Assembly: GCA_022777645.1 (NCBI GenBank)
Contig: JALFFX010000005.1
Location: 1-63,236 of the forward strand
Length of the DNA stretch: 63,236 nt
Source of the DNA: Erysipelotrichaceae bacterium
GTDB lineage: Bacteria > Bacillota_I > Bacilli_A > RFN20 > CAG-826
Direction of reading: 5' to 3'
Below, in pieces: positions 4,731-28,071 of this stretch. The notes below the pieces were generated by a model. The model did no database searches and was not told where the DNA came from. It saw only the letters and a program-made list of their open reading frames with translations. Position 1 is the first letter of the stretch. The number at the start of each line of letters is the position of its first letter. A program made the translations under genes and the position numbers.

Positions 4731-4925
4731 GGATGTTGTCCTATGCAATCTCTTTAGATTTAATTAAATCGAGAATTGTGTTCAATAATGAAACTGGATA
4801 AATAATAACATCGTATTCTCTGCCACTTCCATCCAAGGATATGTAAATCCTAACTAAAGTTTACTATACCATAATTGCTTTTTCTTATCTATTTGTAGTT
4901 AAGAAGGATAAATTATTGTGAGAGT

Positions 4926-6831: not shown

Positions 6832-7605
6832 TTATTTAAATGATATTTCTTCATATCCCAAATCTTTAGAAACACATACATGGTCACCATAGATCGGAAC
6901 TAGTTTATCGACTTTAATTAAATCTTTAGCAGGCCCTTCATCACATACAACACCATTATGAATAAGCACAACATTCGCATTTAAGAATAGTGCGTGATTA
7001 GGATTATGTGTGGAAAGAATAATTGTTTTATTTTCTTCTTTAGAAATATCTTTTAGAAGAGATAAGACTAGATTTTGATTCTTCATATCGAGAGCGGATG
7101 TTGGCTCGTCTAGAAGTATTACTGGTGTTTTTTGGATTAAAGCACACGCTATTAAGACTATTTGAAGTTCGCCACCACTTATCTCACCTAGATTCTTATC
7201 TAATAAATGAGTGATATGGAGTTTTTCGGCTGTAGCTTCAACTAGTTCCATTTCTTCTTTGCCAGGATGCTCATAGAATGCGAGCGTGTTTGTAGTTCCG
7301 TAAGATAAATATTGCCTAACAGGAACATCGTTAGTGACATTAGCTTGTTGAGGCACATATGAGAATGTTTTTGCTCTTTCTCTAATCTTCATCTTTTGGA
7401 GGTCAAAGAGGCCATATTCAATAATTCCTTCTAAAGGTTTTTCTAATCCAGCAAGTAGCTTAATTAATGTTGTTTTGCCACAGCCATTTAAGCCGAGCAA
7501 AACATTAACAGAACCTTCTTTGATGTTGAGGTTTATTGAATTTAACACTGGTTTTGCAGCTTTTTTATCATATTTAAAAGATAAATTAGATGTCTTTATG
7601 CTCAT
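6832..7605 (-). CDS. ABC transporter ATP-binding protein (FepC/BtuD-like)
   Basis: Walker A GLNGCGKTT, signature ISGGELQ, Walker B ILLDEPTSALD. Confidence 0.85.
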   Translation of the reverse strand: MSIKTSNLSFKYDKKAAKPVLNSINLNIKEGSVNVLLGLNGCGKTTLIKLLAGLEKPLEGIIEYGLFDLQKMKIRERAKTFSYVPQQANVTNDVPVRQYLSYGTTNTLAFYEHPGKEEMELVEATAEKLHITHLLDKNLGEISGGELQIVLIACALIQKTPVILLDEPTSALDMKNQNLVLSLLKDISKEENKTIILSTHNPNHALFLNANVVLIHNGVVCDEGPAKDLIKVDKLVPIYGDHVCVSKDLGYEEISFK

Positions 7606-8611
7606 TTAACTTACTCCTTTTAACAATTAAAATTACTACAAATATAAGCGTACCAATTAAGCCTGTCACCGCACTTAATGGAATCTCTGAATCAGTAAAT
7701 GTTCTAGAAAGTATATCGACTAAAATCGTAAATGTTCCACCGAAAGTAATGCATAAAGGTATTGTTCTTTTAGCGTCTCTTCCAGCTAGCAAACGTACGA
7801 TATGTGGAATAACTAAACCGATCCAAGATATGGTTCCGCAGAAGCATACAGATATAGCTGTAAGAACAGTTGATAAAACAATAATTAAACCACGATAAAA
7901 GTTATAGTTAATGCCTTTTGTTTGAGCTTCTGCTTTTCCTTGATTAACTAAATTAATTGGATGGGAAATAAGAAGCAAAACAATAACGCAAACAACTACC
8001 ACTCCCATGAGGATGTAATTGCGATTCATATCAGCGCTTTCGAATGAGCCCATCAACCAATATGTAATACTAGCGAGTGTTGTAATATCGGACGAAAAGT
8101 ATTTGATCATCGATAAGATTGCGGACATGAATCCACCAACTATAATGCCAGACAAGAGCAAAATAGTTGATGAACCATTTCTAAATAGTTTCGATATCAA
8201 CACTGTTGCAAAAACAGTTAATAAACCTATAACAAATGCAAATACACTAATTAATGCAGATGACAATCCAAGAACAATAGCAAGTGCTGCACCTACTGAC
8301 GCTCCAGTACTAACACCTAATAAATCAGGCGATACCAATTTGTTTCTAAATGTTTCTTGGTAAAGTAAACCAGATAACGACAAGCCGATTCCAACAAATG
8401 CGGCCATTATCGTTCTAGGAAATCTAAGGTTAGTAATAATACTTCTTTGTGTATCTAATGATGAATCATCAGTAAAGACAGCCTTGAAGAAATCTCCAAT
8501 TCCGATTTTGTATCTGCCAAGCATTAATGCAAGAGCAAATATAATAGCAAATACGGCTATAGAGATAATAAATGATATTATTGTTCTTCTTTTTAATACT
8601 TTCTCATTCAT
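7586..8611 (-). CDS. FecCD-family ABC permease
   Basis: Polytopic membrane protein with an RFPRTIMAAFVGIGLSLSGLLYQ-type FecCD signature. Its start overlaps the upstream stop (TAATG). Confidence 0.85.
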   Translation of the reverse strand: MNEKVLKRRTIISFIISIAVFAIIFALALMLGRYKIGIGDFFKAVFTDDSSLDTQRSIITNLRFPRTIMAAFVGIGLSLSGLLYQETFRNKLVSPDLLGVSTGASVGAALAIVLGLSSALISVFAFVIGLLTVFATVLISKLFRNGSSTILLLSGIIVGGFMSAILSMIKYFSSDITTLASITYWLMGSFESADMNRNYILMGVVVVCVIVLLLISHPINLVNQGKAEAQTKGINYNFYRGLIIVLSTVLTAISVCFCGTISWIGLVIPHIVRLLAGRDAKRTIPLCITFGGTFTILVDILSRTFTDSEIPLSAVTGLIGTLIFVVILIVKRSKLNEHKDI

Positions 8612-9675
8612 TAATATAACGAGCCACCTTGTGGATTAAGTCCATTGAGCATATAAGAAACTTGATCATCAGTTAAGTCAGTTCCAAAATACTCTTTAAT
8701 GGTTGTTTTAACCATGTTTGAAATATCATATGAGAAATACTCAGGGTAAATCTTGTTAGCTTGGTCATAGAAGAATATTGGTGTCATAGCGGATAATTGT
8801 TCAAAAGCAGTAAATCCGATTGGGATGTTATAGACTTTATTGTTTTTAACCGCATCTAAATTAGTATATGGCTCTTCTGTTTTGAGGGCGTTGATGTTTT
8901 TGTTTTGATATTGACCACCACATACAAAGATATCTGGATTTTGAGCTACGATTTCTTCTTGAGAAGGTTTGTTTGTTGTTAAGGATGCGCCGATAAAATC
9001 AAATCCTAAAGATCTATATGCATATTCAGTGAAAGATCCTTGGTTGTCAGTATAACCAACACCTTTATCTTTATCTCCACGGACATAAAATACTTTCTTT
9101 TTGGTTATATCGTGCTTAGCTAGCTCAGTAGTTACCTCACTAATTGCGGTTGTGACTTTGTTTTCCCAAACTGCTGCTTTTGCTTTGATATCATCACCAT
9201 CCCAAATCTTAGTGACTAATTGAGATAAAAATGTGACGTAATTGTCAAATGTTGGATTTCCATACAAGGAAACACATAAAGCAGGCACACCGTGTGCATT
9301 TAAATCATCAGCAATGTACTTTTCAGGAGCAAATACTAAATCTACTCCTCTTGATAAGAAGAGCTCACTGCTATTTTGATACTCATATACATAATGATTT
9401 TTACTTTCTGGATAAATCAGTGGTACCCAATCATTATTTAATGTGCCTTTGTAAGCTCCATCAATTTTGTCTCCTAGACCATACGCTACTAATAAGTCAT
9501 ATGTTGTTCTAGAGACGCAAGCTACCTTTTTAGGGTTCTTGTTGATGGTTATGGTTGTGCCGACCATATCGGTTACAGATATTGTTTCTTGAGTTTCACC
9601 CTTATTGGAGCAACCTGTAATAACTCCAAGAGAAGTGACTGCCACTAAAAATGGCAAAAATTTACTTTTTAACAT
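8611..9675 (-). CDS. ABC substrate-binding lipoprotein (PF01497-like; siderophore, heme or B12 class)
   Basis: Lipobox LGVITGCS, followed by KKVACVSRTTYDLLVAYGLGDKIDG, typical of class III binding proteins. Confidence 0.75.
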   Translation of the reverse strand: MLKSKFLPFLVAVTSLGVITGCSNKGETQETISVTDMVGTTITINKNPKKVACVSRTTYDLLVAYGLGDKIDGAYKGTLNNDWVPLIYPESKNHYVYEYQNSSELFLSRGVDLVFAPEKYIADDLNAHGVPALCVSLYGNPTFDNYVTFLSQLVTKIWDGDDIKAKAAVWENKVTTAISEVTTELAKHDITKKKVFYVRGDKDKGVGYTDNQGSFTEYAYRSLGFDFIGASLTTNKPSQEEIVAQNPDIFVCGGQYQNKNINALKTEEPYTNLDAVKNNKVYNIPIGFTAFEQLSAMTPIFFYDQANKIYPEYFSYDISNMVKTTIKEYFGTDLTDDQVSYMLNGLNPQGGSLY

Positions 9676-9697
9676 ATAAAAAGGTCCTTTTCCTGGA

Positions 9698-9781
9698 GAT
9701 TAATAGTCAATAACCAGTCAGGCCGACAGATACGTTAACAAGACAAATAACGTATCAAATCGTTTTATAAGACTATTAATC
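9698..9781 (-). promoter_or_regulatory. Structured 5' leader of the ABC importer operon (nested hairpins)
   Basis: Outer 11-bp stem GATTAATAGTC (9698-9708 pairs with 9771-9781). Inner 9-bp stem GATACGTTA (9729-9737 pairs with 9748-9756). The outer arm abuts the RBS region at 9685-9694. Confidence 0.35.
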
Positions 9782-9855
9782 AACCAATTATATTTTAACA
9801 TATCTCGATTAAAGGCACCCACCCTAATATCAATTAGGGCAGGCACCAAATATAT

Positions 9856-11202
9856 TTAAATTGTGGCTTTAGGTTGTGTTGATACAGCAGCAACGCCATT
9901 GAATGAATTGAGAATCATTTCTACTTCACGCTTAGAAAGTCTCTCTTTTTGCTTTAGCTCTTTATAGATGGCATCAACAAGCGATTTGTTCTCAGAAATC
10001 AATGCTTTAGCTTTTTCAAATGCTTCAGTTAATAAATCGCATTCAAGTTCTTCAATCTTTTCAAGTCTTGTTTCTGAAGTTGGGAAAGATTCGTGGGAAA
10101 ATCTTCCAATTTGAGCGTTCGGTAATAATTTATCAAAGCCAAACGCACCAACATTAACTAGTTGAGAAATGTATTCTCTGGCTTTTCCGATATCATCGCT
10201 AGAACCGCTGGTTACGTCACCACACATAACTTGTTCACCAGCTAAACCACCAAGCATTGTTATTAATTTCTTTTTCAGTGTATCTCTTGTTACAGGCTCA
10301 AATTTAATGATCTCTTTATCATAATAAACATGACCCATAACTCTTCCGAATCTTTCGGTTGAGATAGAACCAACAATGCCACTTTGCTTATATTCTGCAA
10401 TAAAATGACCAATTTCATGATAGCAAGTCATATCACTTGGACCATTTCTGCTCTTCTTTTTGATATCTTGAAACATTACGACAGGGATATTTCTTTCAAA
10501 ATCAGCAAGTGTAATATTTTCAATACCTTGAGAAACACAATCAATAATTGTTTCGTTGATTAGTGTTTTAATATCAGCGCCAGAAAAGTTTGCGGTTTTA
10601 AGTGCCAGCTGATGAGCGTCAATATTGCTTAAGCGTTCGTTTCTTGAAAGATAGAGTTTAATTATTTCTTCTCTATCAATCGTATCAGGCATTTCAACTG
10701 TGATTCTTTTGTCCATTCGCCCACTTCTAATCAAAGCAGGAGGGAGCATTGGACGGTAATTTGTGGTGGCAATGACTAAAATGCCATCACTAGATGAGAT
10801 TCCATCAATTTCTGTTAATAGAATCTTTGTTGTTTTTCTTGAGTAGTCAGATCTGAAATCGGATGTCATGACTAATTCATCAAATTCGTCAATAAATACA
10901 ATTGATGGAGCGTTTTCTCTAGCTTTTGTGAATAACGCTTTAATAGATTTGATGGTTTCGGATTCGGTTTCGCCTTCGTTACTCTCGAATTCAAAGAACG
11001 GGACATTACTTTCGTTAGCTATAGCTTTAGCAAGCATAGTTTTACCCACACCGGGATTGCCGGAAAGGATTAAGCCTTTTGGAATATAGGCACCAATCTT
11101 TTCATACTTTTCGTGATTCTTTAAAACCTCGATTATTTTCTTTGCTTCGGCCTTTTCTTCTTCATAGCCAGCGATATCTTTTAAATAGATTTTATCGGTC
11201 AT
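9856..11202 (-). CDS. Soluble FtsH-like AAA+ ATPase fused to an M41 zinc metalloprotease (no transmembrane segment)
   Basis: Walker A GNPGVGKTMLAK, Walker B IVFIDEFDEL, SRH TTNYRPMLPPALIRSGRMDKRI, zinc site HEIGH, and GSSDDIGKAREY matching the FtsH G-x-x-ND-I-x-x-AT region. The protein starts directly at the AAA module. Confidence 0.75.
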   Translation of the reverse strand: MTDKIYLKDIAGYEEEKAEAKKIIEVLKNHEKYEKIGAYIPKGLILSGNPGVGKTMLAKAIANESNVPFFEFESNEGETESETIKSIKALFTKARENAPSIVFIDEFDELVMTSDFRSDYSRKTTKILLTEIDGISSSDGILVIATTNYRPMLPPALIRSGRMDKRITVEMPDTIDREEIIKLYLSRNERLSNIDAHQLALKTANFSGADIKTLINETIIDCVSQGIENITLADFERNIPVVMFQDIKKKSRNGPSDMTCYHEIGHFIAEYKQSGIVGSISTERFGRVMGHVYYDKEIIKFEPVTRDTLKKKLITMLGGLAGEQVMCGDVTSGSSDDIGKAREYISQLVNVGAFGFDKLLPNAQIGRFSHESFPTSETRLEKIEELECDLLTEAFEKAKALISENKSLVDAIYKELKQKERLSKREVEMILNSFNGVAAVSTQPKATI

Positions 11203-11321
11203 ATAGACCCCCTTTCATATTTGTAAATCTATCGAAAAAGCCATCATATCCCCGCTAAATTGCAGAAATTAGATGGCAAAACACAATTATTCGTTTTGTT
11301 ATTTTGCTCTCTTCTTTTTAA

Positions 11322-12118
11322 TTAAATCAAAGGCAAAATAGATGTTTGAAGGTCTTCAGGAAGATAGGGCATCACTTTATCTTCATCATAATAAGTTAGT
11401 CCATAATATGCTTCCGCTATTGAACCAGTAATTGCAGCTTGAGTATCACTATCAGCCCCTAAAGAGATGGCTTTTCTAATAGCGTCTTCAAAGCTTGTTG
11501 ATTCAATGAAAGCACATATGGCTTGTGGAACGCTTCCTTGGCATGTTACCCAGTTACCAAGTTCGTCAAGACCATATCCACTCGCTTTAAGCTTTGCGAT
11601 AGACATATCTGCAAGATCAGGGTAATAAGAGATCATTTTAGATTTGATTTCTTCTTTTGATTCACCAGTTCTTGCCATGAATATTGCCACGGCTATTGCT
11701 TCAGCGCCTTTTATGCTTCTGGATGATTGTGTGTAATCTCAGTAGTCAATTTACTCAATTCAATTGTTTCCTCTAAGGTATCACACACCCATCCAACCGG
11801 AGATATTCTCATAGCAGACCCATTTCCATAATTACTTAATGGAGTTGGAACACTGTATTTGAATAACTAGGCATAAAACATTTTTTCCCAACCAAAATTA
11901 GGATGTTTATGAGTTATATCCTTCATGTTTCTGATTAGGGTATTTTTATAATTATCTCTGTTGTTTCTTGTTACCACTAAGGTTAAAGCCACAGCAAGAG
12001 TCATCAATGTATCTTCTGCAAAATGGCAGGATGGATGAAACATCGGGAAGTCATATTCGTTGAACCCAGATAATTCAAACCTGGATCCAACGATAGCACC
12101 ATATATTGCGCCCAGCAT
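11322..12118 (-). pseudogene. ADP-ribosylglycohydrolase (ARH) family gene, disrupted
   Basis: N-terminus MLGAIYGAIVGSRFE..., middle GNGSAMRISPVGW, C-terminus SDTQAAITGSIAEAYYG. An in-frame TAG lies at 11867-11869 and a +1 frame change lies near 11690-11720. Confidence 0.7.
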
Positions 12119-13104
12119 TATTTCTTCTCACACATATCTACAAATTCTTGATATGTAATGATTTTGCCAGCGTATGGGTATCTTAACCCATTAGCTAGTT
12201 GCTCTTTATTCTTTTCATCTAAGACGACAAGGAAGTCGGAACCGTTAATTCTGTCATAAGCAACAAAACCATTTTCTTCAATGAGCCTAATGAGATTCTT
12301 GAGTTCTTCGTGATTCTCTTTCATTTCGCCACTAACGGTCACAAATTTGCCAATTGAGTTCGCGTCTTCAAGCAATGGTTCGTGTTTACGATATAATTCG
12401 CCCCATAATACTTGTCCTTCATCTCTTTTGGCTTTGTTCTTGCGACCTTGTTCTCTAGCCTTTCGTCTTTCTTTTCTTAGTGGTTCATCAGCTTTATATC
12501 GTTCCCAATACTCTAAAGCCATTATTTTTGATTTTGGACACGCTTCAATCATGTCATTAACTGAGAACTCTAAGTCTTTCAACATAGCAGCAAAGACAAG
12601 CATAGTCTTATATGCATCATCAACAGCTCTATGATCTTTTAGTTCGTTTCTAATATGTTCAGGAACCAATTCAAGGAAAGCTTTTTCTAAAGATGTAAAC
12701 TTACTGTTCTTTCTTGAGAATTCAGGTAGCATCTTTTGAATGTCATAAACTACATAATCAAATGGTTTAAGTTTATAAATAGGGCGGTTGCAATCTTTGA
12801 TAATGAATCTAATATCGTTTTCTACACCATGACCAAAGATTAATAAATCTGGTTGAGTCATGAGGAACTTGATATTGTCATAAGCATCATCAAAAGCGGG
12901 ATGTTTGTAATACTCTTCATATGGATATGTAAGTATTAGGTCCTTCTGCCCTGTTCTTCCAGTCAAATTAAATTTGCACTCAGGGTTAATAAGTGTGTTT
13001 GTTTTCTTTATGATTCTAAACTGTTCATCACAAAGGACAAATCCGAACTCACAAATAGCTTTATTGCCATCTGCACATTCGATATCGAAAAATAAGTATC
13101 GCAT
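12118..13104 (-). CDS. DEDDh (DnaQ-like) 3'-5' exonuclease with a BRCT-like C-terminal domain
   Basis: ExoI FFDIECA, ExoII FGHGVENDIRF, ExoIII HRAVDDAYKT. C-terminus: VTVSGEMKENHEELKNLIRLIEENGFVAYDRINGSDFLVVLDE...AGKIITYQEF. Its stop overlaps the ARH start (TAATG). Confidence 0.7.
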   Translation of the reverse strand: MRYLFFDIECADGNKAICEFGFVLCDEQFRIIKKTNTLINPECKFNLTGRTGQKDLILTYPYEEYYKHPAFDDAYDNIKFLMTQPDLLIFGHGVENDIRFIIKDCNRPIYKLKPFDYVVYDIQKMLPEFSRKNSKFTSLEKAFLELVPEHIRNELKDHRAVDDAYKTMLVFAAMLKDLEFSVNDMIEACPKSKIMALEYWERYKADEPLRKERRKAREQGRKNKAKRDEGQVLWGELYRKHEPLLEDANSIGKFVTVSGEMKENHEELKNLIRLIEENGFVAYDRINGSDFLVVLDEKNKEQLANGLRYPYAGKIITYQEFVDMCEKK

Positions 13105-13251
13105 AAATATACCTCTCTTTCTTGCGGGATACAGATATACTCGTAGTTAGCGAGAAATATCCTATAGGAAGTTTTGTTCATATTTTATATAGGAATATAA
13201 AATTTAAAGACTAGTTTACCGTAAGTTTTTTGATGTTTTTAAGAAAACGAT

Positions 13252-16050
13252 TTAGTCTTTTCTATTATAGTTATATTTATTAAATAAGGTATACTGCGCT
13301 CTTTCGCCAGGTGCGGTTTTTCTTAAAGTTGGCAAAGCTCTAACATCGTCATTAAATAGTGATTTAAGAGTATAGCCCAACTTGTCTGAGAAATTACTAA
13401 TGATGTAAAGGAAAATGAAACTTTTTGAATAGCCATCATCTCTTTTTTCTAGCGCTTTAATAATTAATTTTGCTTTTTCCGGAGTATTTATTTTTCGTTT
13501 GAGTTCTATGTACGCTTTTTTGATTGCATTATTAAAATTCATTTTCTTCAATTCAAAATCATTATTCCTACTTTGATCTCTGATCTTGGTCACTGCTTCA
13601 TTAGTTGCATCCAATATTTCAATTGCCTCTCTAACTTGCGCGTAAACAGGCCCAGAAATATTTTTTGTATCAAGCCCTTCACAAATTAGGTCAAAGAATG
13701 GAATTGTTTTTGTTCTAATATCACTGTCAAATTTATTTCTACTTACGGCATCCCATAAGTAATCCATTGCCGTTTTAAACTCTCGCTCTTTATTACTTTC
13801 TTCTTTGATTTTACTGATCTTTGGCTTATGGCCATTCTTTTTAGTTACAACAGTAAAGAATAACGGCTTTGTTTTTAGGAGCCCATTTACCTTAGCGTAT
13901 TTTCTTAATCTGTTATATTCTGTTGTTGTATTGAATGGAAATGAGCGTTTGGCGCTATCAATTTCTGCACCAGATAAAACCGATAAAATAGCTATTTGAT
14001 TATATAACTCTTTGTAAGCTTTATTTTTTCCATTACCGAATTTATTCCATAAGTGGCTATTTAACAATTGAGACAAATTAACTATCTTTCCAACATTATT
14101 GTTAGCAATCTCGTTATCGATCGTATAAAGATTCAAAATTAAGTTAGTTTTCTCATCATGACATTTGAAATCTTTTAAAGGTTTTTTCTGCGAACCAAAA
14201 CCAGTAAAAGGAACAGGGAATAAACTATAATTCTTTTCGGCAGCAGCAACAAGGATATCGTTATCTGTTAAGAGCATTGAATCTGAGTCATAATCACACC
14301 CACTTAACCTCTGCTGAATATTGTTGTTAATAGCGTCAACTACCACTATTTGCTTGGTAAGATTGAAATACTGATTAATTTCTTTTAATTCTTTATTCTC
14401 AACCAATAAGACATTACCCATTGTTGTATGAGGCGCTCTGGAACCAACAAGCTTCTTTCCATTTTCAAAGAACGAACAACATATTTCTCCATCTTTCAAC
14501 AAAGAGGACGGACAGTTAGGATCAAAGCTTTTAATAATATATTTTAAATATTCATAAGGATTTCCAAACAAAGTTGCATATGTTCCATTAACAAGGACTT
14601 TTCCGTTATAAAGTTTTAAAAGTAAGCTATCAACTACACTACTGAAAACGCGTTTTTTAAACAAATCTGTGTGTCTAACTCTTCCATCAATTTTTATTAG
14701 TTCAAGACACACTTTGTTCTTAAAAGAATAGCTCGAGTAATTAAGTAGTTCTTTTTCAGCATTAATATCATTGGTATCCTTTGAATCATCGCTGTAGTCG
14801 TCATATTGATTCCCTGTGTCTTCACCCTCTAAATAAAAGCGAATAAACTCAGGCGTGTTTTTAATATCTCTAATGAGTTTAATATATTCAAAATAAAGAT
14901 GAACAAAGTTGCTTACATTATTTTGCTTTAGCTGAAGTGAATTAAGTAGTTGATAAGTTGTTTCCACCATTTCGCCATCAAAAAATCTGGTAGGCTTGTC
15001 TGTTTTAACAACGCCGAATTTTGTTTCATCTGTGTTGATTTCGTCACACCATCTCTTAATATTTTCTTTAGAAAAACCGCCGTCACACATCTTTAGATAT
15101 TTGAGGCACGATTCACTAGCCACCAAGACAATATCATCTATAGATTTTGCAAATGTAACGCCATTCAATTGATCAAGACTAGTTATGTTGTTGTCTTTAA
15201 ACCATTTTTTTAGATTTGTGTTAAAGGCGCAGCACTTAAAGAAACGACTTCTTAGCAGCATCATTCCTTTCTTTTGCTTTTTTATTTTTCTAAAAACACT
15301 TTCATCAAGTAGCCCTTCGCCATCAAAAATATTGTTCTCGACATCACATATAGATTCTTCGGCATTGAGTCCACTCTTTTTGTCGTGATAAACCCTAACA
15401 ACGTTTTGGTTCTTTAGAGTTACCTTCACGTCTTTAACAAACAAAATATTGTATGGATTTAAGTCTAATGTGGTAATGACACTACTTAACGATAAAGCTC
15501 TGTAAGCTTCATACGATGTTAAATCTTTAAAACACAAGTCTTTAAATTCATCCAATCCAGCTCTTGACCATTTGGTCATCATAGGAGAAAGATCTTTTTT
15601 AATGAATAAGCAACTTCCGCCTTTAGCAGCTCCGCTTGAACGTTTATATCTAACATACTTTTTTCCATTCAAGACAAAACCATTTAGGTATAGATACTTT
15701 CTAATATCTTGAATAGGTATCTTTGTTTCAAACTTCTTGGTTGGAATAACCTGTTCTTTCTTCTTATTTACATAAAGGGGGTATTTAAATGAGACGTTGA
15801 CAAAAACATCAGAGTAATACTCTTCCCCTAACTTTTTGAGCGTTAGTTCCTTTTTGCTTTCTAAATAATATAAATCTAGGTTAGGCGGCACAATGTCTGA
15901 ATACTTGTCGTTAAATTCATCCTTGCCATTCTTGATTTCTATTGGCTTATTGTAGATTGATGAGTAATAAAGGTCTGCAGCTTCTATTTCAATAAATCTA
16001 ATATTATCCATATAGATAAGTTTATCATTTATGGGCTTAAAACTCGTCAT
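13252..16050 (-). CDS. Eukaryotic-type RdRP / YonO-like two-barrel (DPBB) polymerase homolog
   Basis: Ordered motifs: RSSGAAKGGSCLF (aa 137-149), FDGEGLL (242-248), LLRSRFFKCCAF (265-276), GSRAPHTTMGNVLLV (536-550), SGCDYDSDSMLL (583-594). DYDSD is encoded at 14281-14295 and was verified on the DNA. Confidence 0.55.
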   Translation of the reverse strand: MTSFKPINDKLIYMDNIRFIEIEAADLYYSSIYNKPIEIKNGKDEFNDKYSDIVPPNLDLYYLESKKELTLKKLGEEYYSDVFVNVSFKYPLYVNKKKEQVIPTKKFETKIPIQDIRKYLYLNGFVLNGKKYVRYKRSSGAAKGGSCLFIKKDLSPMMTKWSRAGLDEFKDLCFKDLTSYEAYRALSLSSVITTLDLNPYNILFVKDVKVTLKNQNVVRVYHDKKSGLNAEESICDVENNIFDGEGLLDESVFRKIKKQKKGMMLLRSRFFKCCAFNTNLKKWFKDNNITSLDQLNGVTFAKSIDDIVLVASESCLKYLKMCDGGFSKENIKRWCDEINTDETKFGVVKTDKPTRFFDGEMVETTYQLLNSLQLKQNNVSNFVHLYFEYIKLIRDIKNTPEFIRFYLEGEDTGNQYDDYSDDSKDTNDINAEKELLNYSSYSFKNKVCLELIKIDGRVRHTDLFKKRVFSSVVDSLLLKLYNGKVLVNGTYATLFGNPYEYLKYIIKSFDPNCPSSLLKDGEICCSFFENGKKLVGSRAPHTTMGNVLLVENKELKEINQYFNLTKQIVVVDAINNNIQQRLSGCDYDSDSMLLTDNDILVAAAEKNYSLFPVPFTGFGSQKKPLKDFKCHDEKTNLILNLYTIDNEIANNNVGKIVNLSQLLNSHLWNKFGNGKNKAYKELYNQIAILSVLSGAEIDSAKRSFPFNTTTEYNRLRKYAKVNGLLKTKPLFFTVVTKKNGHKPKISKIKEESNKEREFKTAMDYLWDAVSRNKFDSDIRTKTIPFFDLICEGLDTKNISGPVYAQVREAIEILDATNEAVTKIRDQSRNNDFELKKMNFNNAIKKAYIELKRKINTPEKAKLIIKALEKRDDGYSKSFIFLYIISNFSDKLGYTLKSLFNDDVRALPTLRKTAPGERAQYTLFNKYNYNRKD

Positions 16051-16123
16051 ATTTATTAGAGTATCGTTTTTCTTACTGCTTATGTTGTTTTGTCCCCATA
16101 TTGGTTACAAAAAAATCTACCGA

Positions 16124-16327
16124 TTACTCGATAGAAATTCTTGTAATGTCGAGAAGCTTGCAAATCTTGAAGAATGTGTCAATGTCTGTACCGCGATTTA
16201 GAATTCTGGAAACGGTCTTACGACTTGCGCCTAACTTCTTGCCGAAATTAGTTTGATTCTTATATTTGTCTTTGATTCGACATTTAATTTCTTCCATCAC
16301 TTTAGCGGAAGAGAAGCAATCATTCAT
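16124..16327 (-). CDS. Small Xre/Cro-type HTH protein
   Basis: NQTNFGKKLGASRKTVSRILNRGTDIDTFFKICKLLDI. Strong RBS GGAGGAGGAAAG. Confidence 0.65.
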   Translation of the reverse strand: MNDCFSSAKVMEEIKCRIKDKYKNQTNFGKKLGASRKTVSRILNRGTDIDTFFKICKLLDITRISIE

Positions 16328-16380
16328 AAATCTTTCCTCCTCCGTAAAACTGAGGTTAGATTAATGATTGCTCAACTATT

Positions 16381-17346
16381 TTATATCAAATCAAAATAAT
16401 TGTCTTTTAAAATTCTCAATAGCGATTCGTCAGAGTTCCACCAAGACTCACCAGGTTCTTCGTCATAAACCAATTTGCAGAACTCTTTTGAAAACTCTAG
16501 CAGATTATTTAGGATGTCATCTACAAACGTTGGACCTATCTTAAGCCAATGTCCTGCATACATGCCATTTTCGTATGGTTTGCCTGCTTCTTTTTTTGAA
16601 TAAACATGCTGTGCCAAAAAAGCCTTTAAGTTCGCATCTTTTTCTCTAGAATTACACGCAATGGATAAATATGATTTCACAGTATTGTGTTTTAAGAAGT
16701 TATCAATTTTGTTCAATAAATCAAAGTACTTGAAATGTTGAAGTTGAAAAAGCGGATTCGTTTCAGCACTTGTGGCGCCAGTCTTTGCTTGAACATAGTC
16801 ACAAAATGATCCAAACGTAAAATCATAGTTGTTTGGATAGCCACGGTCTTTTATAACAACAAGAAGAGCACGGAAGTACTCGGCAAATATTTTTTGAATA
16901 TACTGAAGGTGAATGCTTTTAATTACTTCATCGTATTTATTCTCTCTTCTTAAGCTTTCCCTTAAAGCTTCAAATTCAATTTCTTCCATATCTTCTCCAG
17001 GTGAAGAGGAAAACATTAACTGACTAGTTCTGGATTGATCATAAACTTGTCTTGGGGTTGTCAAACCCTTAATAGCATCTTTGTATTCTGTGTTCCAATC
17101 TTTAGCCAATATATTAAGTTGCGTTCTTAACAGATTGATTGCCCATTCACTTTCGCTTTTATGTTTTGGAACAAAATAATGGGTGTTTCTCGGCATTGAA
17201 AACATTGCTTCAGGAAAAGACCCATCACAATGGAGTTTCTTTAATCTTTTGGTGTCAATATGATATCTTCCATCTTTTAAATGGAAACCATAATAGGTGT
17301 AGTCACTTGGACTATATTTAGAATAGTCGAATAATTCTTTAGCCAT
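16381..17346 (-). CDS. Hypothetical protein (no recognisable domain)
   Basis: Long ORF. I prefer the ATG at 17346 (MAKELFDYSKY) because AAAGAGG lies 7 nt upstream. Confidence 0.5.
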   Translation of the reverse strand: MAKELFDYSKYSPSDYTYYGFHLKDGRYHIDTKRLKKLHCDGSFPEAMFSMPRNTHYFVPKHKSESEWAINLLRTQLNILAKDWNTEYKDAIKGLTTPRQVYDQSRTSQLMFSSSPGEDMEEIEFEALRESLRRENKYDEVIKSIHLQYIQKIFAEYFRALLVVIKDRGYPNNYDFTFGSFCDYVQAKTGATSAETNPLFQLQHFKYFDLLNKIDNFLKHNTVKSYLSIACNSREKDANLKAFLAQHVYSKKEAGKPYENGMYAGHWLKIGPTFVDDILNNLLEFSKEFCKLVYDEEPGESWWNSDESLLRILKDNYFDLI

Positions 17347-17664
17347 ACATAAACCTCTTTCATCCTTACTTTGTCTACTTATGCTATATGCAGCACACCA
17401 CTCCTTGAACACGTCAACATAGGCGTCGCAATGGAAACAACTTAATATCCTTGCTCCTGCTGCGAATTTATACTATCACATCATCTAATCAACTCCAACT
17501 TTTGTCCCCAAAAATGTCCCAAGGATAAGCAAAAAAGAAAACCATAACACTAAGTGTTATTTATCCACAACCTTCCTCAATGGTGGTAGTAATGAATGGA
17601 TAATTTAATTTGAAAATCTAATGAAATAATAAAAACTAAAACGTCGTTTTTTACTATCGTTAAA

Positions 17665-18324
17665 TTATATGATAATCCTATAGCCTATTCCGATTTCAGT
17701 ATGGATATAATTATGATTATTTATGCATAATTTTCGTCGTAAATTCAAAATGAAAACGCGAAGAGATTGATATTCATCAAGCGAATCATAACCCCAAACT
17801 TCTTTTTGAATATATTTATGTGTTAACACCCTTTCTTTGTTATTTATAAACAAAGACAACATCTTAAATTCCAATGGCGTAAGATGGATTTCAACATCAT
17901 CTACAAATACTTGGTGTAATGCAAAGTTTACTTTTAAACCTTTGCTTTCAAAAACCTCTTTATTAGCGATATTGTTTCTTCTTAAACAGCCTCTGATTCT
18001 CGCTAACAATTCCTCGCTCATAAAAGGCTTTGTTAAATAATCGTTCGCGTCTAAATCAAGAGCTTTGACTTTATCATCTTCTGCATCGCGAGCAGAAATA
18101 ACAATAATTGGTGTCTGATCAATTTTTCTAATTTGTTTTATCACTTCTAAACCATCTACATCAGGAAGACCTAAATCCAAAAGAATTAATTCAGGTTTAT
18201 CGCTTAAAAAAATAGATAATCCGGTAAGACCATTGCTTGCAACTTTAACTTTGTAATCGTGTGTTTTTAATGTTAACTCTAATAATTTTGCAATTGATTT
18301 ATCATCCTCGATTATCAGTATCAT
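17665..18324 (-). CDS. OmpR/PhoB-family response regulator (KdpE-like)
   Basis: Receiver domain ILIIEDDKSIA...LLDLGLPDVDG...KP, plus a winged-helix C-terminus ending GIGYRI. RBS AAGAGGTG precedes the ATG at 18324. Confidence 0.85.
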   Translation of the reverse strand: MILIIEDDKSIAKLLELTLKTHDYKVKVASNGLTGLSIFLSDKPELILLDLGLPDVDGLEVIKQIRKIDQTPIIVISARDAEDDKVKALDLDANDYLTKPFMSEELLARIRGCLRRNNIANKEVFESKGLKVNFALHQVFVDDVEIHLTPLEFKMLSLFINNKERVLTHKYIQKEVWGYDSLDEYQSLRVFILNLRRKLCINNHNYIHTEIGIGYRIII

Positions 18325-19834
18325 CGTGTTCACCTCTTTTCAATGGAATTCTAAATTTAAATGATGCGCCACCAATATCGTTATTCATAGCTTCGATAAA
18401 TCCGTTATGTATTTCGACGATTGATTTGCATATTATCAGGCCTAAGCCATTTGATCTATAAGCATCTTTCTTTTGAAGAAGTCTTTTATCTTCTTTGAAT
18501 AAATCTTTGATTTTATCAACAGGTATTCCGCCTCCATTATCGCTTATTTCTGCTAACAAATTGTCATTGTTAATGTTAAAGATAACACTAATCGTGCTGC
18601 CAGGTGCAGTGTATTTAATGCCGTTGCTTATTAAGTTAATAAATAATTGGATCATCAGTTGTGCGTTACAATATATCAAAGTTGTTTCATCAACTGTTGG
18701 GTAAATAATTTTCTGGCTAAATTTTTGTTTTGAAAAATATTCTTCAACATTTTGCATAATATCTGCTAAAGATTCATATTCTTTGTTTATTGATTGTCTA
18801 TCAGATATTTTTGACATATTTAATAAATTGTTAACAAAAGAATACAAAGATACCGATTCGTTATAAATATCATCGAGAAGCTCTTTTGTTTCTGTTGCCG
18901 AAATATTATCGAGATTTTCTTTTAAAAACAATGAGCCAGATTGAATTGAAGTCAAAGGTGTTTTTAAATCGTGCGACAAACTCCTTAAAAGCGTTGATTT
19001 AAAATGCTCTCTCTCACTTTTGTGTTCACTTTTTTCTTGTTCTTGGATTGCACGTTCTCTTTCTAAGACGACAGCCGCTTCTGTCGATATACTTTTGATA
19101 AAATTAAATTCAGAATCACTAAAAGAATTTTTGATTAATCTAATAAATATATAACCAAATTTTACCGATTTTGATCTTATCGGAAATACTAAAAAATTAT
19201 TTGATGAGTATACTGGTTGGTTATAACCGACAATTGTAAATTGATTAACAGAAAAATCGCATGCTTCCATTTCCTCATTGCTGAGTGAAGTTATATTGCC
19301 ATACGTCTTATTTAAGAACAGATTTTTCAATAAAAATTTATTTTTGATGTTTTCTTCTAAACATGCGGTAATGCAATTATATATTTCATCTTCATCGTGG
19401 CAATTAAGAAATTTTTTTGATAAATCAAACAATATATTTATTCTCTTTTCGTTTTCTTGTGATTGTTTTACTTCTTTTTGAAGTTGAATAACAATGCTAC
19501 CAAATATGATGGCAATGATAATGAAGAATCCAAATGAAATATAATAATTTAAATCATCCATTACAAAAGAGTATTGGGGTTCAGTTAAAAAGAAATTAAA
19601 CGCCAAACACAGAAAAGCACATGAAATAATACTATAGATGATCGATTTTGTTTCAATTGTAATTATTAACACCGCCAAAATGAAAAGAATAAAGATGTTT
19701 TCATCGTGTATATAGCTTCGATTTAACACGAGCATCAATCCAATCGCTAAACCGTTTATTAATAGCGTAATAAGGATATTGAACAATAAAGTGTTTCTTT
19801 TAAATAATTTTCGTTTTTGCATAAGGATAATCAC
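18302..19834 (-). CDS. Sensor histidine kinase, KdpD C-terminal type (membrane + HisKA + HATPase_c), lacking the KdpD N-terminal domain
   Basis: Four N-terminal TM helices, H-box SHDLKTPLTSI, G-box NGLGLIICKSIVEIHNG. The start may instead be the ATG at 19822. Confidence 0.8.
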   Translation of the reverse strand: MIILMQKRKLFKRNTLLFNILITLLINGLAIGLMLVLNRSYIHDENIFILFILAVLIITIETKSIIYSIISCAFLCLAFNFFLTEPQYSFVMDDLNYYISFGFFIIIAIIFGSIVIQLQKEVKQSQENEKRINILFDLSKKFLNCHDEDEIYNCITACLEENIKNKFLLKNLFLNKTYGNITSLSNEEMEACDFSVNQFTIVGYNQPVYSSNNFLVFPIRSKSVKFGYIFIRLIKNSFSDSEFNFIKSISTEAAVVLERERAIQEQEKSEHKSEREHFKSTLLRSLSHDLKTPLTSIQSGSLFLKENLDNISATETKELLDDIYNESVSLYSFVNNLLNMSKISDRQSINKEYESLADIMQNVEEYFSKQKFSQKIIYPTVDETTLIYCNAQLMIQLFINLISNGIKYTAPGSTISVIFNINNDNLLAEISDNGGGIPVDKIKDLFKEDKRLLQKKDAYRSNGLGLIICKSIVEIHNGFIEAMNNDIGGASFKFRIPLKRGEHDDTDNRG

Positions 19835-19835
19835 T

Positions 19836-21287
19836 TCACTTTCTAGAAGTTAAATTAATTATAGTATATATAACTGCGAATATTTCTAACCTTCCTAAAT
19901 ACATACCAACAATTGCTGTCCAAAGAATGACATTGCTTGAATACATTGTAATTAAACCACAAGATAGTCCCACTGTTGATAGGCAACTAGCAAATTCAAA
20001 CATTGACTCTTCCATAGAATATCCAAATGAAGAGAATATTAAAGATCCTATTAAAAATAATAAAAGATAGGTGAAAACAAATGCATAATTAGCGGAAAGC
20101 TTGCTGTCGTCTAAATATATTATTTGTTCATCTTTTCTGAGCAATGAATGGTGGATTATTTTTCTATTTTTGAATGATCTAGTAATATAATCACCTATAC
20201 CTTTTAGACAAGTGATAATTCTAAATTGTTTTATGCCTCCAGCAGTAGAGCCCATTTCTCCACCAATCAGCATGAACATTATCATAATGCCAATAAAGAA
20301 ATGGGGAAGAATAGATATTGAACTAATGTTTTGGAAGCCAGTTGTAGTAAGAGCACTTACCAATTGAAAAATAACAACCATAACGTTATTGTTATCACAT
20401 TCAAAGTTGGTTCCATAAAATATGGAAATTGAGATTATGCTAAACAAAATGATTATTATGAATGAAAAAATTGTTTCGCAATGAAAAAAGACGGCTTTAA
20501 ATTTTCTTTTTAGTAAAAATATGTGTATTACAAAATTTGTGCCACCGAGCAGCATTAACAAAATCGATACTATTTCAATACCAAGTGAATGGAATTCATA
20601 AATATTTCCAGCTTTGGTTGAAAAACCACCAGTGGATAAGGCAGCAATTGAATGATTAAAAGCATCAAATAAATCCATGCCACAGCATAAATACAATATT
20701 GTGCCTAAAACAATATAGCCGAAATATAAGGCGAAAATTAAACGACTAGATTTGATGAAATTTGGCAATAATTTGTCATTGTGTCCTTCTGCTTCATAAA
20801 TATTTAATCGCAATTTATCGCTGATGGCTGAAGTGACTATTAAAACAAAACCAACCCCGCCGACGAAAAGAGTTAACGATCGATAAAACAAGAAAATTTT
20901 AGGACAAGAAGCAACATCAATTACCGATAATCCTGTTGTTGTATAACCACTTGTTACCTCAAATATTGCTCTAGTAAAGCTTATTTTACCGGTTAATAAA
21001 AACGGAAACGATGAAACAAATATTAAAATAATCCAAATTAAAACAACTAATACCACATCCTGGTGATTTTCTAAATTGACAGGTTTCTTCTTTTTAAAAA
21101 AGAAGTTGATAAGGTATCCAAGAAAAATTGTAATAATACCAGGAATTAAAAAACAATATGCATAATTTATCTCATTATGATAAAAAATAAGCATCAATAA
21201 AGGAAGCAAAATAATAAAACCGATCGCAATTAAAAACAATCCGATGTAATAAATGATTAGTTTATATCCACTTATTTGGTTATTCAT
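19836..21287 (-). CDS. TrkH/KtrB-family K+ transporter
   Basis: Polytopic membrane protein with repeated TTTGF/STGGF/TTTGL selectivity-filter-like motifs. Confidence 0.8.
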   Translation of the reverse strand: MNNQISGYKLIIYYIGLFLIAIGFIILLPLLMLIFYHNEINYAYCFLIPGIITIFLGYLINFFFKKKKPVNLENHQDVVLVVLIWIILIFVSSFPFLLTGKISFTRAIFEVTSGYTTTGLSVIDVASCPKIFLFYRSLTLFVGGVGFVLIVTSAISDKLRLNIYEAEGHNDKLLPNFIKSSRLIFALYFGYIVLGTILYLCCGMDLFDAFNHSIAALSTGGFSTKAGNIYEFHSLGIEIVSILLMLLGGTNFVIHIFLLKRKFKAVFFHCETIFSFIIIILFSIISISIFYGTNFECDNNNVMVVIFQLVSALTTTGFQNISSISILPHFFIGIMIMFMLIGGEMGSTAGGIKQFRIITCLKGIGDYITRSFKNRKIIHHSLLRKDEQIIYLDDSKLSANYAFVFTYLLLFLIGSLIFSSFGYSMEESMFEFASCLSTVGLSCGLITMYSSNVILWTAIVGMYLGRLEIFAVIYTIINLTSRK

Positions 21288-21952
21288 TTACCTATTTTCC
21301 TTGTAAATAAAGAAGCAATCGCGTCTTTATGTTCGCTGGCAACCATAATAAAAACTTTATCCCCGGATAATAATGTTGTGTCGCCTCGAGGGATGATCAC
21401 ATTGGGTTTTCGATAGATTGCACTTACATTAAATTCCTTATCAATAGCAATATCTTTTAATCTTTTATTGCAAACAAAATAATCATCTTTTATTAGCAAT
21501 TCAAATATCGTTACAATGTTATCTTCGAATGATAAAGTTTTTACGATTGATTCAATATTTGATTCGTTTTTAATTGTTTCACCCAATAAATAAGTTGATG
21601 ATATTGTCGAATCAATTCCCAATGCTTTAAATAAACTGACGATATTTGGATTTTTTACAATCGCGATCGTTCGTTTGACATGAAATCTTTGTTTTGCCAA
21701 TTTGCATGATATGTAGTTTGTTACATCACTATTGGATAAGGCGATGAATAAATCGAAATTGTCTATTTGGGCTATTTTTAAATCATAATCATTGGTAGAG
21801 TCGCCAAAAATAATATCGATGCCATTCTTTTTGCTTAATTCATTACTGATATTTAAATCATCGTTGATAACCACAATCTTGTTCTTGTGATTTTTATACA
21901 TTTTTATAATGTAATCGGCTTCTTCATGCCCATTTGATATTGCTACTCTCAT
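21284..21952 (-). CDS. TrkA/KtrA-like RCK protein (degenerate N-lobe + TrkA-C)
   Basis: Size and TrkA-C-like C-terminus, and operon position. The Rossmann glycine motif is degenerate (VAISNGHE). Confidence 0.6.
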   Translation of the reverse strand: MRVAISNGHEEADYIIKMYKNHKNKIVVINDDLNISNELSKKNGIDIIFGDSTNDYDLKIAQIDNFDLFIALSNSDVTNYISCKLAKQRFHVKRTIAIVKNPNIVSLFKALGIDSTISSTYLLGETIKNESNIESIVKTLSFEDNIVTIFELLIKDDYFVCNKRLKDIAIDKEFNVSAIYRKPNVIIPRGDTTLLSGDKVFIMVASEHKDAIASLFTRKIGK

Positions 21953-21953
21953 A

Positions 21954-22367
21954 TCAATTTTTCTCCTGTATCTTTAAAGAATCAAAATATTTTATTGAAA
22001 GCAAAAACGGGCAAATCGAATGAATGTTTTCACTTGTGATTAGTTTTTCTTTATTACTGTCATATAAGCGAATATATATATCTTTTATCCTGAACATATA
22101 ATTGCACATATCAGCGATAAAAATATTTTTATTATCATCACCAGTGACAACAATTAACATTGATAGATTATCCAAATTAAAATTATCAAGAGCGGAAGGA
22201 TTTGTGAAATCAGCAACTCTTGTAAAACCGCTGAAATCCTGAATTTTATTAAAGACTTCATTTGATAAATCAACAATGGTGACATTAAAACCTTCTTTTG
22301 ATAGATTATTGGCGATTTGACACCCAAGTTTTCCAGCCCCAATTACATAGACATTTTTCGTCATCAT
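21954..22367 (-). CDS. TrkA-N (NAD-binding RCK) domain protein
   Basis: VYVIGAGKLGCQIANNL Rossmann motif. RBS GAAGGTGA precedes the ATG at 22367. Confidence 0.7.
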   Translation of the reverse strand: MMTKNVYVIGAGKLGCQIANNLSKEGFNVTIVDLSNEVFNKIQDFSGFTRVADFTNPSALDNFNLDNLSMLIVVTGDDNKNIFIADMCNYMFRIKDIYIRLYDSNKEKLITSENIHSICPFLLSIKYFDSLKIQEKN

Positions 22368-22563
22368 CGTCACCTTCTTTATATTCACCAAGTATTTCTA
22401 TAGTTTTTATAAAGAACAATGAAATATATTGGAGGCTTTTGATTAAGGGATTATAAATAACCAAAAAGTTTTTTTCTTCTTTAATATATGCCCCTGTCAT
22501 TGAAGCCCATCCATAATTAGAATTGAGAGTAATTTTAATTTTTTTATGTTCAAAATCTTTCAT
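22306..22563 (-). CDS. Small hypothetical protein (overlaps the trkA-N start by 62 nt)
   Basis: Good RBS GAGGTGA 7 nt upstream of the ATG. No recognisable domain. Confidence 0.3.
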   Translation of the reverse strand: MKDFEHKKIKITLNSNYGWASMTGAYIKEEKNFLVIYNPLIKSLQYISLFFIKTIEILGEYKEGDDDDEKCLCNWGWKTWVSNRQ

Positions 22564-23752: not shown

Positions 23753-23769
23753 TTAATCCTCTCTAAAAA

Positions 23770-23796
23770 ATGCTTCGATCAACTCGGAGCATTTTT
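23770..23796. terminator. Bidirectional terminator between convergent fba and the GT2 gene
   Basis: ATGCTTCGA-tcaac-TCGGAGCAT, flanked by A-run and T-run. Confidence 0.65.
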
Positions 23797-25679: not shown

Positions 25680-25682
25680 TCT

Positions 25683-28034: not shown

Positions 28035-28071
28035 GCTTTCATTTTAGCAAATTTATGCTGATAATTAACAT

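Follow-up and report, generated by a model that had tools for sequence, protein, structure and literature searches.

A predicted two-barrel RNA polymerase of the YonO/QDE-1 lineage next to exonuclease and AAA+ protease genes in an Erysipelotrichaceae chromosome

What does a relative of the polymerases of RNA interference (RNAi) do in a bacterial chromosome, outside any recognisable phage? The question is raised by an open reading frame (ORF), here called POL, found at 13252..16050 on the minus strand of contig JALFFX010000005.1 (assembly GCA_022777645.1) of an Erysipelotrichaceae bacterium; the whole 63,236-nt stretch analysed is referred to as the window. POL starts at an ATG and encodes 932 amino acids (aa). 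There is very little doubt that the product is an intact single-chain RNA polymerase (RNAP) of the two-barrel (double-psi beta-barrel) type, homologous to YonO of prophage SPbeta and sharing the fold of Neurospora QDE-1 and plant RDR2. Within the YonO/QDE-1 lineage, it belongs to a clade marked by a DYDSD catalytic loop. POL is followed on the same strand by genes encoding a DEDDh exonuclease and an ATP-dependent protease. In the explanation best fitting these data, the polymerase would have been co-opted from phage or transposon relatives into a non-mobile module of inter-genomic conflict; a probability of about 0.4 is assigned to this explanation as a whole, inferred biology included.

The sequence-only reading of the window had recognised POL by a series of motifs. 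All were found at the residues it gave: RSSGAAKGGSCLF at 137-149, FDGEGLL at 242-248, LLRSRFFKCCAF at 265-276, GSRAPHTTMGNVLLV at 536-550 and SGCDYDSDSMLL at 583-594, with 48 residues separating R538 from D586. The DYDSD loop was read on the DNA as well, the reverse complement of 14281-14295 being GATTATGACTCAGAT. POL was aligned with 49 homologues, identical to it down to 33% (alignment A1, 50 sequences). D243, R267, K272, R538, P540, H541, G584, D586, D588 and D590 are invariant in all 50, so that the pattern, far from being a chance string, is the signature of a conserved active site. Eight residues are known to be invariant in all two-barrel RNAPs, and are represented in QDE-1 by D709, R738, K743, R962, P964, D1007, D1009 and D1011 (Ruprich-Robert and Thuriaux, PMC2919709). 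The same signature is found in POL as D243, R267, K272, R538, P540, D586, D588 and D590. The first three residues, encoded within 15235..15324 (minus strand, codons D243 to K272), lie in the first barrel and are the putative counterparts of D709, R738 and K743; the triad D586-Y-D588-S-D590, encoded at 14281..14295 (minus strand), is predicted to bind metal A. Spacing is also similar. R and K are 5 residues apart in both POL and QDE-1, and the R-x-P segment precedes the first Asp by 48 residues in POL, 45 in QDE-1 and 43 in YonO.

The replacement of glycine by serine in the DxDGD loop, pointed out from the sequence alone, is real and involves the whole family. All the 87 family polymerases collected feature D[YF]DSD, and serine is found in 49 of the 50 A1 sequences; glycine is present only in YonO and in the protein of phage Perkons, which share the loop DNDGD. 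DYDSD polymerases are hence a distinct subfamily, and the serine is not a quirk of the window gene. The canonical D-x-D-G-D loop, common to YonO, QDE-1 (DYDGD, differing from POL at one position) and multisubunit RNAPs (NADFDGD), is missing in POL, in which the three Asp are intact.

Direct pairwise comparison of POL to YonO is marginal, the best BLASTP segment having an E value of 0.006. The yonO gene was taken from the SPbeta record, and its product was compared by hhalign with the A1 family profile. The two are homologous with 98.4% probability (E 4.6e-15) over 537 columns spanning both barrels (query 110-737, YonO 118-662). D586, D588 and D590 fall on the YonO triad 535-DNDGD-539, in agreement with the catalytic role that had been assigned to DYDSD; the POL stretch RAPH aligns to RSPH (YonO 492-495), and R267...K272 to R266...K271. 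A probability of 99.3% was obtained by comparing the same profile with the YonO homologue ('RdRP', RNA-dependent RNA polymerase) of Psychrobacillus phage Perkons. POL and YonO are of similar size, YonO being 839 aa long. In the PHROGs collection, the unnamed phage family phrog_8308 matches POL over its whole length (E 1.9e-83), and phrog_4291, annotated as 'RNA-dependent RNA polymerase', matches residues 514-659 (E 6e-6).

An AlphaFold model of POL was built on A1 (mean predicted local distance difference test score, pLDDT, 88.1; predicted template modelling score, pTM, 0.86). The top 21 matches found by Foldseek in the PDB are all QDE-1 or plant RDR2, with E values from 1e-15 to 1e-11, probability 1.0, and template modelling (TM) scores of 0.44-0.49 over about 900-1000 columns. 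No other fold match is strong; next come weaker ones, to the RNAP gp96 of phage P23-45 (8h2m, E 4e-3) and to the largest subunits, beta'/Rpb1, of multisubunit RNAPs. P23-45 gp96 and the virion RNAPs of crAss-like phages (E 1e-6 to 1e-2) are members of the same two-barrel superfamily, but are far more distant from POL than QDE-1 or YonO (TM below 0.2), and differ in domain organisation and in their virion- or tail-associated biology. The best match among viral predicted structures (E 1e-53, TM 0.76) is a protein named 'RNA dependent RNA polymerase'. The profile alignment to YonO, the invariant residues and the QDE-1/RDR2 fold matches jointly bear out the initial identification of POL as a polymerase of the YonO/cellular RdRP type.

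Replacing the Asp triad by Asn abolishes RNA extension by YonO (Forrest et al. 2017, PMC5467207). POL, with its residues intact, is likely to be catalytically active. It would carry out template-directed polymerisation of nucleoside triphosphates (NTPs) by two-metal catalysis, D586, D588 and D590 holding metal A, D243 helping to hold metal B, and R267, K272 and R538 contacting the incoming NTP. By analogy to YonO, which is DNA-dependent, and to QDE-1 (single-stranded DNA, then RNA), the likeliest template of POL would be DNA, possibly single-stranded.

The order of the minus-strand genes in the window is as follows: Kdp-like histidine kinase and response regulator, F32, HTH, POL, exonuclease, ADP-ribosylglycohydrolase, AAA+/M41 protease, siderophore-type ABC transporter. 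The neighbours of POL noticed at first sight, an Xre-type helix-turn-helix gene (HTH, 16124..16327, minus strand) and a DEDDh/RNase_T exonuclease gene (EXO, 12118..13104, minus strand), are real, and the locus does lie between K+ and transporter genes, precisely between the Kdp-like two-component system plus Trk K+ uptake genes (17665-22391) and the siderophore-type ABC transporter (6832-9675). Genes for fructose-bisphosphate aldolase and RarA are located on the Kdp-like/Trk side. Relaxase, recombinase, terminase and portal profiles match nothing in the window, and POL, in line with the sequence-only reading, is not in a recognisable prophage there; the phage location of YonO-like RNAPs is encountered in sister clades. 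That POL is the YonO of an ordinary SPbeta-like prophage, or what is left of one in decay, would agree with the homology to YonO, the presence of one neighbouring pseudogene and the occurrence of relatives at 23-38% identity in phage records. This explanation is largely refuted, and essentially excluded for the window, by the lack of phage genes and the housekeeping flanks, by the intact catalytic residues and a ratio of nonsynonymous to synonymous substitution rates (dN/dS) of 0.22, by the maintenance of the same locus in a second assembly (GCA_034174525.1), and by the scarcity of relatives in IMG/VR, where only 5 of 2.9 million contigs match the family patterns, at 28-32% identity. When POL and the flanking response regulator were looked up as exact sequences, only the same arrangement emerged, and no empty insertion site. 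No convincing repeats flank the cassette, only short and imperfect ones; no Rfam RNA family was found in the interval 9000-18500, and promoter- and terminator-like sites in the cassette are not above shuffled expectation.

The family to which POL belongs is large. An exhaustive profile search gave 1797 clusters at 50% identity with E up to 1e-3, 783 of them with E up to 1e-30, and 236 species-representative genomes encode a relative matching two family-specific peptide patterns. Hosts are almost all gut or rumen Bacillota (Erysipelotrichaceae, Christensenellaceae, other Clostridia, Acholeplasmatales), with the addition of a few Bacteroidales bins and of one cultured isolate, Pumilibacter muris. 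A plasmid search returned only seven Clostridium records (24-31% identity). Loci of relatives, labelled L001 and so on, were fetched, their ORFs were called, and neighbouring genes were clustered, annotated with Pfam and profiled; the resulting contexts were mapped onto a neighbour-joining tree of the polymerases. Gene context tracks polymerase phylogeny, and five clades are found among the fetched loci. Most of the family loci sampled sit on mobile elements, either prophages or Tn4451-like mobilizable elements. The statement that the members known from the bacterial world are phage transcription enzymes is too narrow, chromosomal and selfish-element copies having been already reported.

Clade I includes the window gene. 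Its polymerases are about 925-944 aa long, and are followed on the same strand either by a DEDDh exonuclease, an ADP-ribosylglycohydrolase and a soluble AAA+/M41 protease, or by a proteasome-type protease and an AAA ATPase; mobility-gene profiles (relaxase, recombinase) match nothing within 10 kb. In clade II, POL is followed by the small protein F7, an AAA or AAA-M41 protein and 3-4 tandem proteasome-type paralogues, and a SNF2-MoxR-VWA trio sometimes adjoins. Several clade I and II loci are flanked by ordinary chromosomal genes (major facilitator superfamily transporters, alpha-galactosidase, AddAB, Bat operon, GGDEF).

Clade III polymerases are found in a prophage order, F24, POL, F25, HU, tyrosine integrase, terminase, portal, which is shown also by a 176-kb human-gut phage scaffold; adjacency to a HU gene is common to YonO in SPbeta. 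POL could be imagined as the dedicated transcriptase of a cryptic module derived from a mobile element, acting from its own promoters on a private gene set, located in the cassette or elsewhere, independently of host RNAP and sigma factors and with no immune function. In SPbeta, 37 genes require YonO, a processive DNA-dependent RNAP, and chromosomal YonO-like proteins were speculated to transcribe specific gene sets (Forrest et al., PMC5467207). The homology of the family profile to YonO across both barrels, and the SPbeta-like arrangements of sister clades with HU, integrase, terminase and portal genes, are also in keeping with such a role. It is nevertheless doubtful for the window gene, as no structural, lysis or mobility genes that may constitute the regulon are found in the window, the cassette comprises only 3-4 genes, travels without phage or mobility genes and contains no repeated promoter-like element or other repeat, and the consistent pairing with proteolytic machinery is left unexplained.

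In clades IV and V, POL adjoins HTH_36, a MobL relaxase and two tyrosine recombinases, or else NikA/MobC, a MobA-type relaxase, TnpV and a large serine recombinase. Relaxase and recombinase genes next to the polymerase were in fact detected in these clades as matches to PF03432, MobL, NikA/MobC, TnpV, resolvase/recombinase and phage integrase. In about 25 loci (L019-L083, e.g. L039 10001-17468) a polymerase of 848-890 aa is located 0.2-0.9 kb upstream of co-oriented NikA/MobC, relaxase, TnpV and serine recombinase genes; the arrangement is that of a Tn4451-like mobilizable element. Very large uncharacterised proteins (1000-2000 aa) are encoded upstream of the polymerase in these loci. Iyer and Aravind proposed (cited in PMC3417536) that RdRP-like proteins of selfish elements and phages are primases aiding mobility. 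RNA made on single-stranded DNA would prime the complementary strand, or allow expression of early genes after transfer, and the window copy would be domesticated or stranded. The position of POL upstream of the mobilization genes, or near MobL and two tyrosine recombinases, and the use of single-stranded DNA templates by QDE-1 (PMC9508822), fit this proposal. It is hardly probable for the window, because relaxase, recombinase and replication genes are missing within 10 kb in the window clade, no mobility profile matches in the window, the gene is nevertheless under purifying selection, and it is hard to see what a non-mobile cassette in the chromosome would need priming for. Clades IV and V fit the bacterial 'selfish element/transposon' RdRP-like proteins, non-phage relatives of YonO and RdRPs found on mobile elements, for which PMC3417536 and PMC7824862 mention restriction endonuclease, URI-nuclease and RNase H partners, next to the primase role. 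The partners in the window clade are different, being a DEDDh exonuclease, an ADP-ribosylglycohydrolase and an AAA+ protease, with no mobility genes.

These partners deserve description. EXO is a 328-aa DEDDh (RNase_T-type) 3'-5' exonuclease (PF00929, E 2.7e-9) with an uncharacterised C-terminal half. It has no sequence match in the PDB, and matched in PADLOC a generic CRISPR-associated DEDDh model and PDC-S48; homologues in L008 and L088 are 68-72% identical, with dN/dS about 0.09-0.12. The ADP-ribosylglycohydrolase gene (11322..12118, minus strand) is a pseudogene, in which PF03747 is recognised on a C-terminal fragment; an in-frame stop is found after about codon 83 and a frameshift near codon 146. 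By tblastn, the intact 282-aa homologue of L001 splits in the window into two frames with stops. The gene is broken in the sister strain (L087) too, and homologues of about 280 aa were called in L001, L009, L090 and L093. Macro-domain genes hold a similar position in L002. AAA-M41 (9856..11202, minus strand, 448 aa, PF00004 and PF01434) is a soluble FtsH-like AAA+ ATPase fused to an M41 zinc protease. It aligns end-to-end with cytosolic FtsH (2ce7 residues 12-458, E 1.6e-67), and is devoid of the membrane-spanning N-terminus. No other cassette gene is as conserved, identity being 76-88% in L008, L088 and L107 and dN/dS 0.06-0.10.

POL, EXO and AAA-M41 are under purifying selection (dN/dS relative to the sister strain 0.22, 0.12 and 0.10, respectively). 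Identity between the window and L088 is 66% for POL, 72% for EXO and 83% for AAA-M41, against 33-43% for the adjoining transporter proteins. L008 retains F32, POL, EXO and AAA-M41, with two extra genes before POL and unrelated flanks. High identity of the cassette, divergent flanks and dN/dS values of 0.06-0.22 indicate that the cassette moves as a unit and is maintained by selection. In the window (6832-9675), L088 (11071-13885) and L107 (1716-4584), the cassette abuts, at its AAA-M41 end, a Peripla_BP_2/FecCD/ABC_tran operon, the transporter proteins being 33-43% identical to those of the window and AAA-M41 83-88%; this is either a recurrent adjacency or a preferred insertion site.

In 27 of 33 rows of the two nearest clades, a count including repeat copies of the same contigs, POL is followed within about 6 kb by a same-strand gene for an AAA-M41 or proteasome-type protease, and the pairing is absent from the prophage and relaxase/recombinase clades. 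The adjacency spans two POL clades about 36-40% identical, and different types of protease, i.e. M41, AAA with 3-4 proteasome-type paralogues, and SprT-like/HELGH proteins. These data lean towards a functional link between POL and the protease, and the view that polymerase, protease and exonuclease make up one functional unit is slightly favoured. The main alternative to this view is that two unrelated modules share the island, POL acting alone and EXO plus AAA-M41 being a separate system, to which a membrane protein of 436 aa would normally belong. In L103-L106 and L186-L189, the nearest relatives of AAA-M41 (80-92% identity) are indeed found with EXO and the membrane protein, and no POL in view, and POL occurs without proteases in phage and mobilizable-element clades. 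Such a coincidence looks improbable, the adjacency being kept across two clades and different protease types, and POL, EXO and AAA-M41 having been transferred together relative to their flanks. The 436-aa protein, a multi-pass membrane protein with no Pfam family (L103 2554-3864, L186 8886-10193, L002 8124-9464, L008 2875-4221), was initially considered as a nucleic-acid enzyme, a candidacy that was rejected. Its start overlaps the stop of AAA-M41, and it is found also in the polymerase loci L002, L008 and L076. It could be a separate membrane anchor, or partner, for the soluble protease. It has more than 1,800 homologues, the best 120 of which are 84-95% identical, and appears to have spread recently among gut Bacillota. 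In loci with AAA-M41 and no POL, Schlafen-like, Fic, PIN, DUF1016, AAA_15/21, IS605 and radical-SAM genes are found nearby. Proteins of about 318 aa encoded after POL in L093 and L009 were rejected as diverged exonucleases, because alignment shows that they are unrelated HELGH-motif proteins. Phage FtsH-like proteins were similarly discarded as cassette relatives, the matches being generic (about 30% identity) and not located in polymerase-bearing phages.

Other loci vary this theme. In L018 (13003-16756), L049 (12933-20765) and L027 (13290-17136), all from Clostridia, the operon downstream of the polymerase encodes F7, one or two AAA ATPases, and a tandem array of three or four paralogues related to a PF00227-annotated proteasome-type protein; the proteasome-type partner of the polymerase has no sequence match in the PDB. 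Multi-paralogue proteasome-like sets would be unusual outside Actinobacteria, and operons of this type in Clostridia are possibly undescribed. A trio made of SNF2, MoxR (AAA_3) and VWA/DUF2201/transglutaminase proteins abuts the polymerase in six loci (L001, L090, L011, L015, L080, L075) of two clades, in either order; the SNF2-family helicase is about 1,100 aa long, and carries WH_1, DUF8437 and Helicase_dom in L001 and L090. L040 and L048 are near-identical polymerase loci from an unclassified 'bacterium' bin and an Alistipes onderdonkii bin, respectively, with a Bat-operon-like set upstream, a SprT-like protein, AAA, F7 and AAA-M41; either the cassette is present also in Bacteroidales, or the contigs are mis-binned.

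Upstream of POL, the 67-aa Xre-type HTH protein matches HTH_3 and DUF739, in both cases below Pfam curated cut-offs. F32 (16381..17412, minus strand) would be 343 aa long if read from its GTG start, but the ATG at 17346 is the more probable start, giving 321 aa. The protein is all-helical and evolves fast: 90.5% of its amino acids are identical in the sister strain (synonymous rate, dS, 0.21), where flanking genes are 97-100% identical. F32 has no match in Pfam, PHROG or PADLOC, and 81 homologues of about 320 aa. Its structural model is confident (pLDDT 91.6), with no significant fold match; the best match suggested a Hbl-B/ClyA-type toxin (E 0.046, TM about 0.2) and was not trusted. The F32 and HTH pair precedes other cargo in L190-L194, namely an AAA_11/AAA_12 helicase of 1500 aa and two unknown genes. 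In L191, where the cargo is a 1503-aa helicase, F32 is followed by a 67-aa gene product 75% identical to HTH. Such alternative loci are often located directly after a tRNA-U5-methyltransferase gene. Since the same pair precedes different cargos elsewhere, the polymerase cassette is one alternative cargo in a variable island. F32, present in the window and in L190-L196, may be the anchor of the island, a regulator or a sensor.

The surroundings are compatible with a conflict-type island, as the sequence-only reading had proposed. A Mokosh-like helicase and a ParE-GNAT fusion are encoded in the window, and TIR, NERD, Schlafen-like and Fic genes are found near relatives, as are DUF2971, DNA methylase, Macro, PIN genes and the SNF2-MoxR-VWA trio; several clade II loci have plain metabolic flanks. 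The helicase (1632-4748, minus strand) is a 1038-aa superfamily 1 protein with AAA_11/AAA_12 domains, similar to the MkoC and MkoA models of Mokosh (E 7e-50 and 4e-42). It is located about 5 kb from the polymerase cassette, just past the ABC transporter. The adjoining 573-aa protein (4974-6695, minus strand) has no Pfam or PADLOC match, and the two may form a Mokosh-like defence pair. At 234-1070, on the plus strand, a single ORF of 278 aa encodes an unusual toxin fusion, with a ParE toxin domain (PF05016) at the N-terminus and a GNAT acetyltransferase domain (PF13302) at the C-terminus. Among the neighbours annotated in the window and in relatives, none resembles Argonaute, Dicer or PIWI.

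The co-option of POL into a defence-type module is weighed here against the evidence opposing it. In this preferred explanation, an RNA product, or the engagement of the polymerase with foreign DNA, would be coupled to exonucleolytic trimming and ATP-dependent proteolysis. A role of the cassette in conflict or defence is a plausible, if tentative, hypothesis. Several observations weigh against the explanation, or against parts of it. The predicted equivalence of single residues in POL and QDE-1 rests on fold, pattern and spacing, and not on a residue-level superposition. The Pfam RdRP profile PF05183, proposed as a check in the sequence-only reading, gives no match to POL at E up to 1; it detects only 1 of 50 family members (E 2.9e-8), and a precomputed match is carried by two homologues. 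QDE-1 and RDR2 were not reached by sequence searches of the PDB with the protein, with the full family profile or with a core-only profile (A2, residues 484-625, YonO and Perkons included), and POL is bacterial and outside an RNAi context. POL has no match to any other Pfam family (E up to 1) or in NCBIfam, and, like F32, F7 and the proteasome-type partner, none to PADLOC-DB 2.0 defence models. One cassette gene, the ADP-ribosylglycohydrolase, is decayed. AAA-M41 matches the IetA and TRIP13 models of PADLOC at a generic AAA+ level. Iet, composed of the AAA+ ATPase IetA and the protease IetS, resembles the cassette in coupling an AAA+ protein to proteolysis, and the AAA domains match IetA models with E 5e-30 to 3e-36; the NCBIfam IteA score is nevertheless 93.7, against a cut-off of 510. 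Iet lacks a polymerase, and the cassette has, in place of an IetS-type subtilase, either proteasome-type subunits or an M41 domain of the FtsH type joined to the ATPase. The loci hosting AAA-M41 and EXO with no POL in view, in some of which the upstream sequence is short, weaken the case for an obligatory three-gene machine, as protease and exonuclease occur without the polymerase. Lastly, polymerases of the sister clades are fixed parts of mobile elements, in the order F24-POL-F25/HU/integrase/terminase or upstream of MobC-relaxase-TnpV-serine recombinase, and the ancestral role was therefore probably a service to the element, transcription or priming, and not host immunity.

A more specific form of the defence hypothesis, speculative and unlikely as it stands, is that POL, EXO and the AAA+ protease are an unrecognised bacterial immune module. 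The polymerase would copy invading or aberrant, single-stranded DNA into RNA, or make short RNA signals, the exonuclease would process the product, and a protease of the FtsH, Cdc48 or proteasome type would carry out the response or control it, for instance through degradation of a regulator, comparable to the release of a sigma factor by the protease CalpL in type III CRISPR signalling. A locus from an Acholeplasmatales metagenome-assembled genome (L017, 4300-15546) may be mentioned beside this idea: AddB/AddA genes, the polymerase gene, a gene for a 295-aa sigma-70-family protein (regions 2, 3, 4) and the AAA-M41 protease gene are found there, the sigma-like gene being located between polymerase and protease. 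Were the immune module real, this copying of DNA into RNA would represent in prokaryotes the equivalent of the step that initiates fungal quelling, and perhaps its evolutionary origin.

Two features of the window are unrelated to the cassette. The cumulative GC skew has a minimum near 27-28 kb, and genes turn from mostly minus (left) to mostly plus (right) at about 23000-31000, as expected near a replication origin. DnaA boxes are not clustered in the window, the perfect sequence TTATCCACA being found only at 17561 and 26789.

YonO-like genes in firmicute chromosomes and in 'selfish elements' were reported, without a function, from 2003 to 2017. Forrest et al. (2017, PMC5467207) noted that chromosomal copies exist, and 'transposon relatives' are mentioned by Iyer et al. 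(2021). A cell-encoded YonO/RdRP-like copy is consequently not new biology in itself, which tempers the novelty claimed in the sequence-only reading. The literature compared, which did not include the primary paper of Iyer and Aravind (2012), contains no experimental work on any non-phage member and describes no exonuclease/AAA-protease association; no paper from 2018-2026 on the function of non-phage YonO-like proteins was found. The protease-linked cassette seems undescribed. POL, a predicted polymerase, differs from YonO in being located outside a phage and in its linkage to exonuclease and AAA+ protease genes, neither of which is found near yonO in SPbeta. What appears new is the size of the DYDSD family and its three-way ecology, the conserved pairing of two clades with proteolytic machinery, and the placement of the cassette as an island cargo.

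YonO-like polymerases outside phages have been called 'enigmatic' since 2010. The locus described here provides a concrete test system, being a compact cassette under purifying selection in abundant bacteria of the human and animal gut, and the family offers three natural contexts for comparison, i.e. prophages, Tn4451-like mobilizable elements and protease-linked cassettes. In the window cassette, an exonuclease and ATP-dependent proteolysis are genetically linked to a polymerase that shares its fold and active site with the RNAi polymerases of eukaryotes. Any answer, be it immunity, private transcription or priming, would show a role of the bacterial relatives of RNAi RdRPs, and bears on how the eukaryotic enzyme was recruited.

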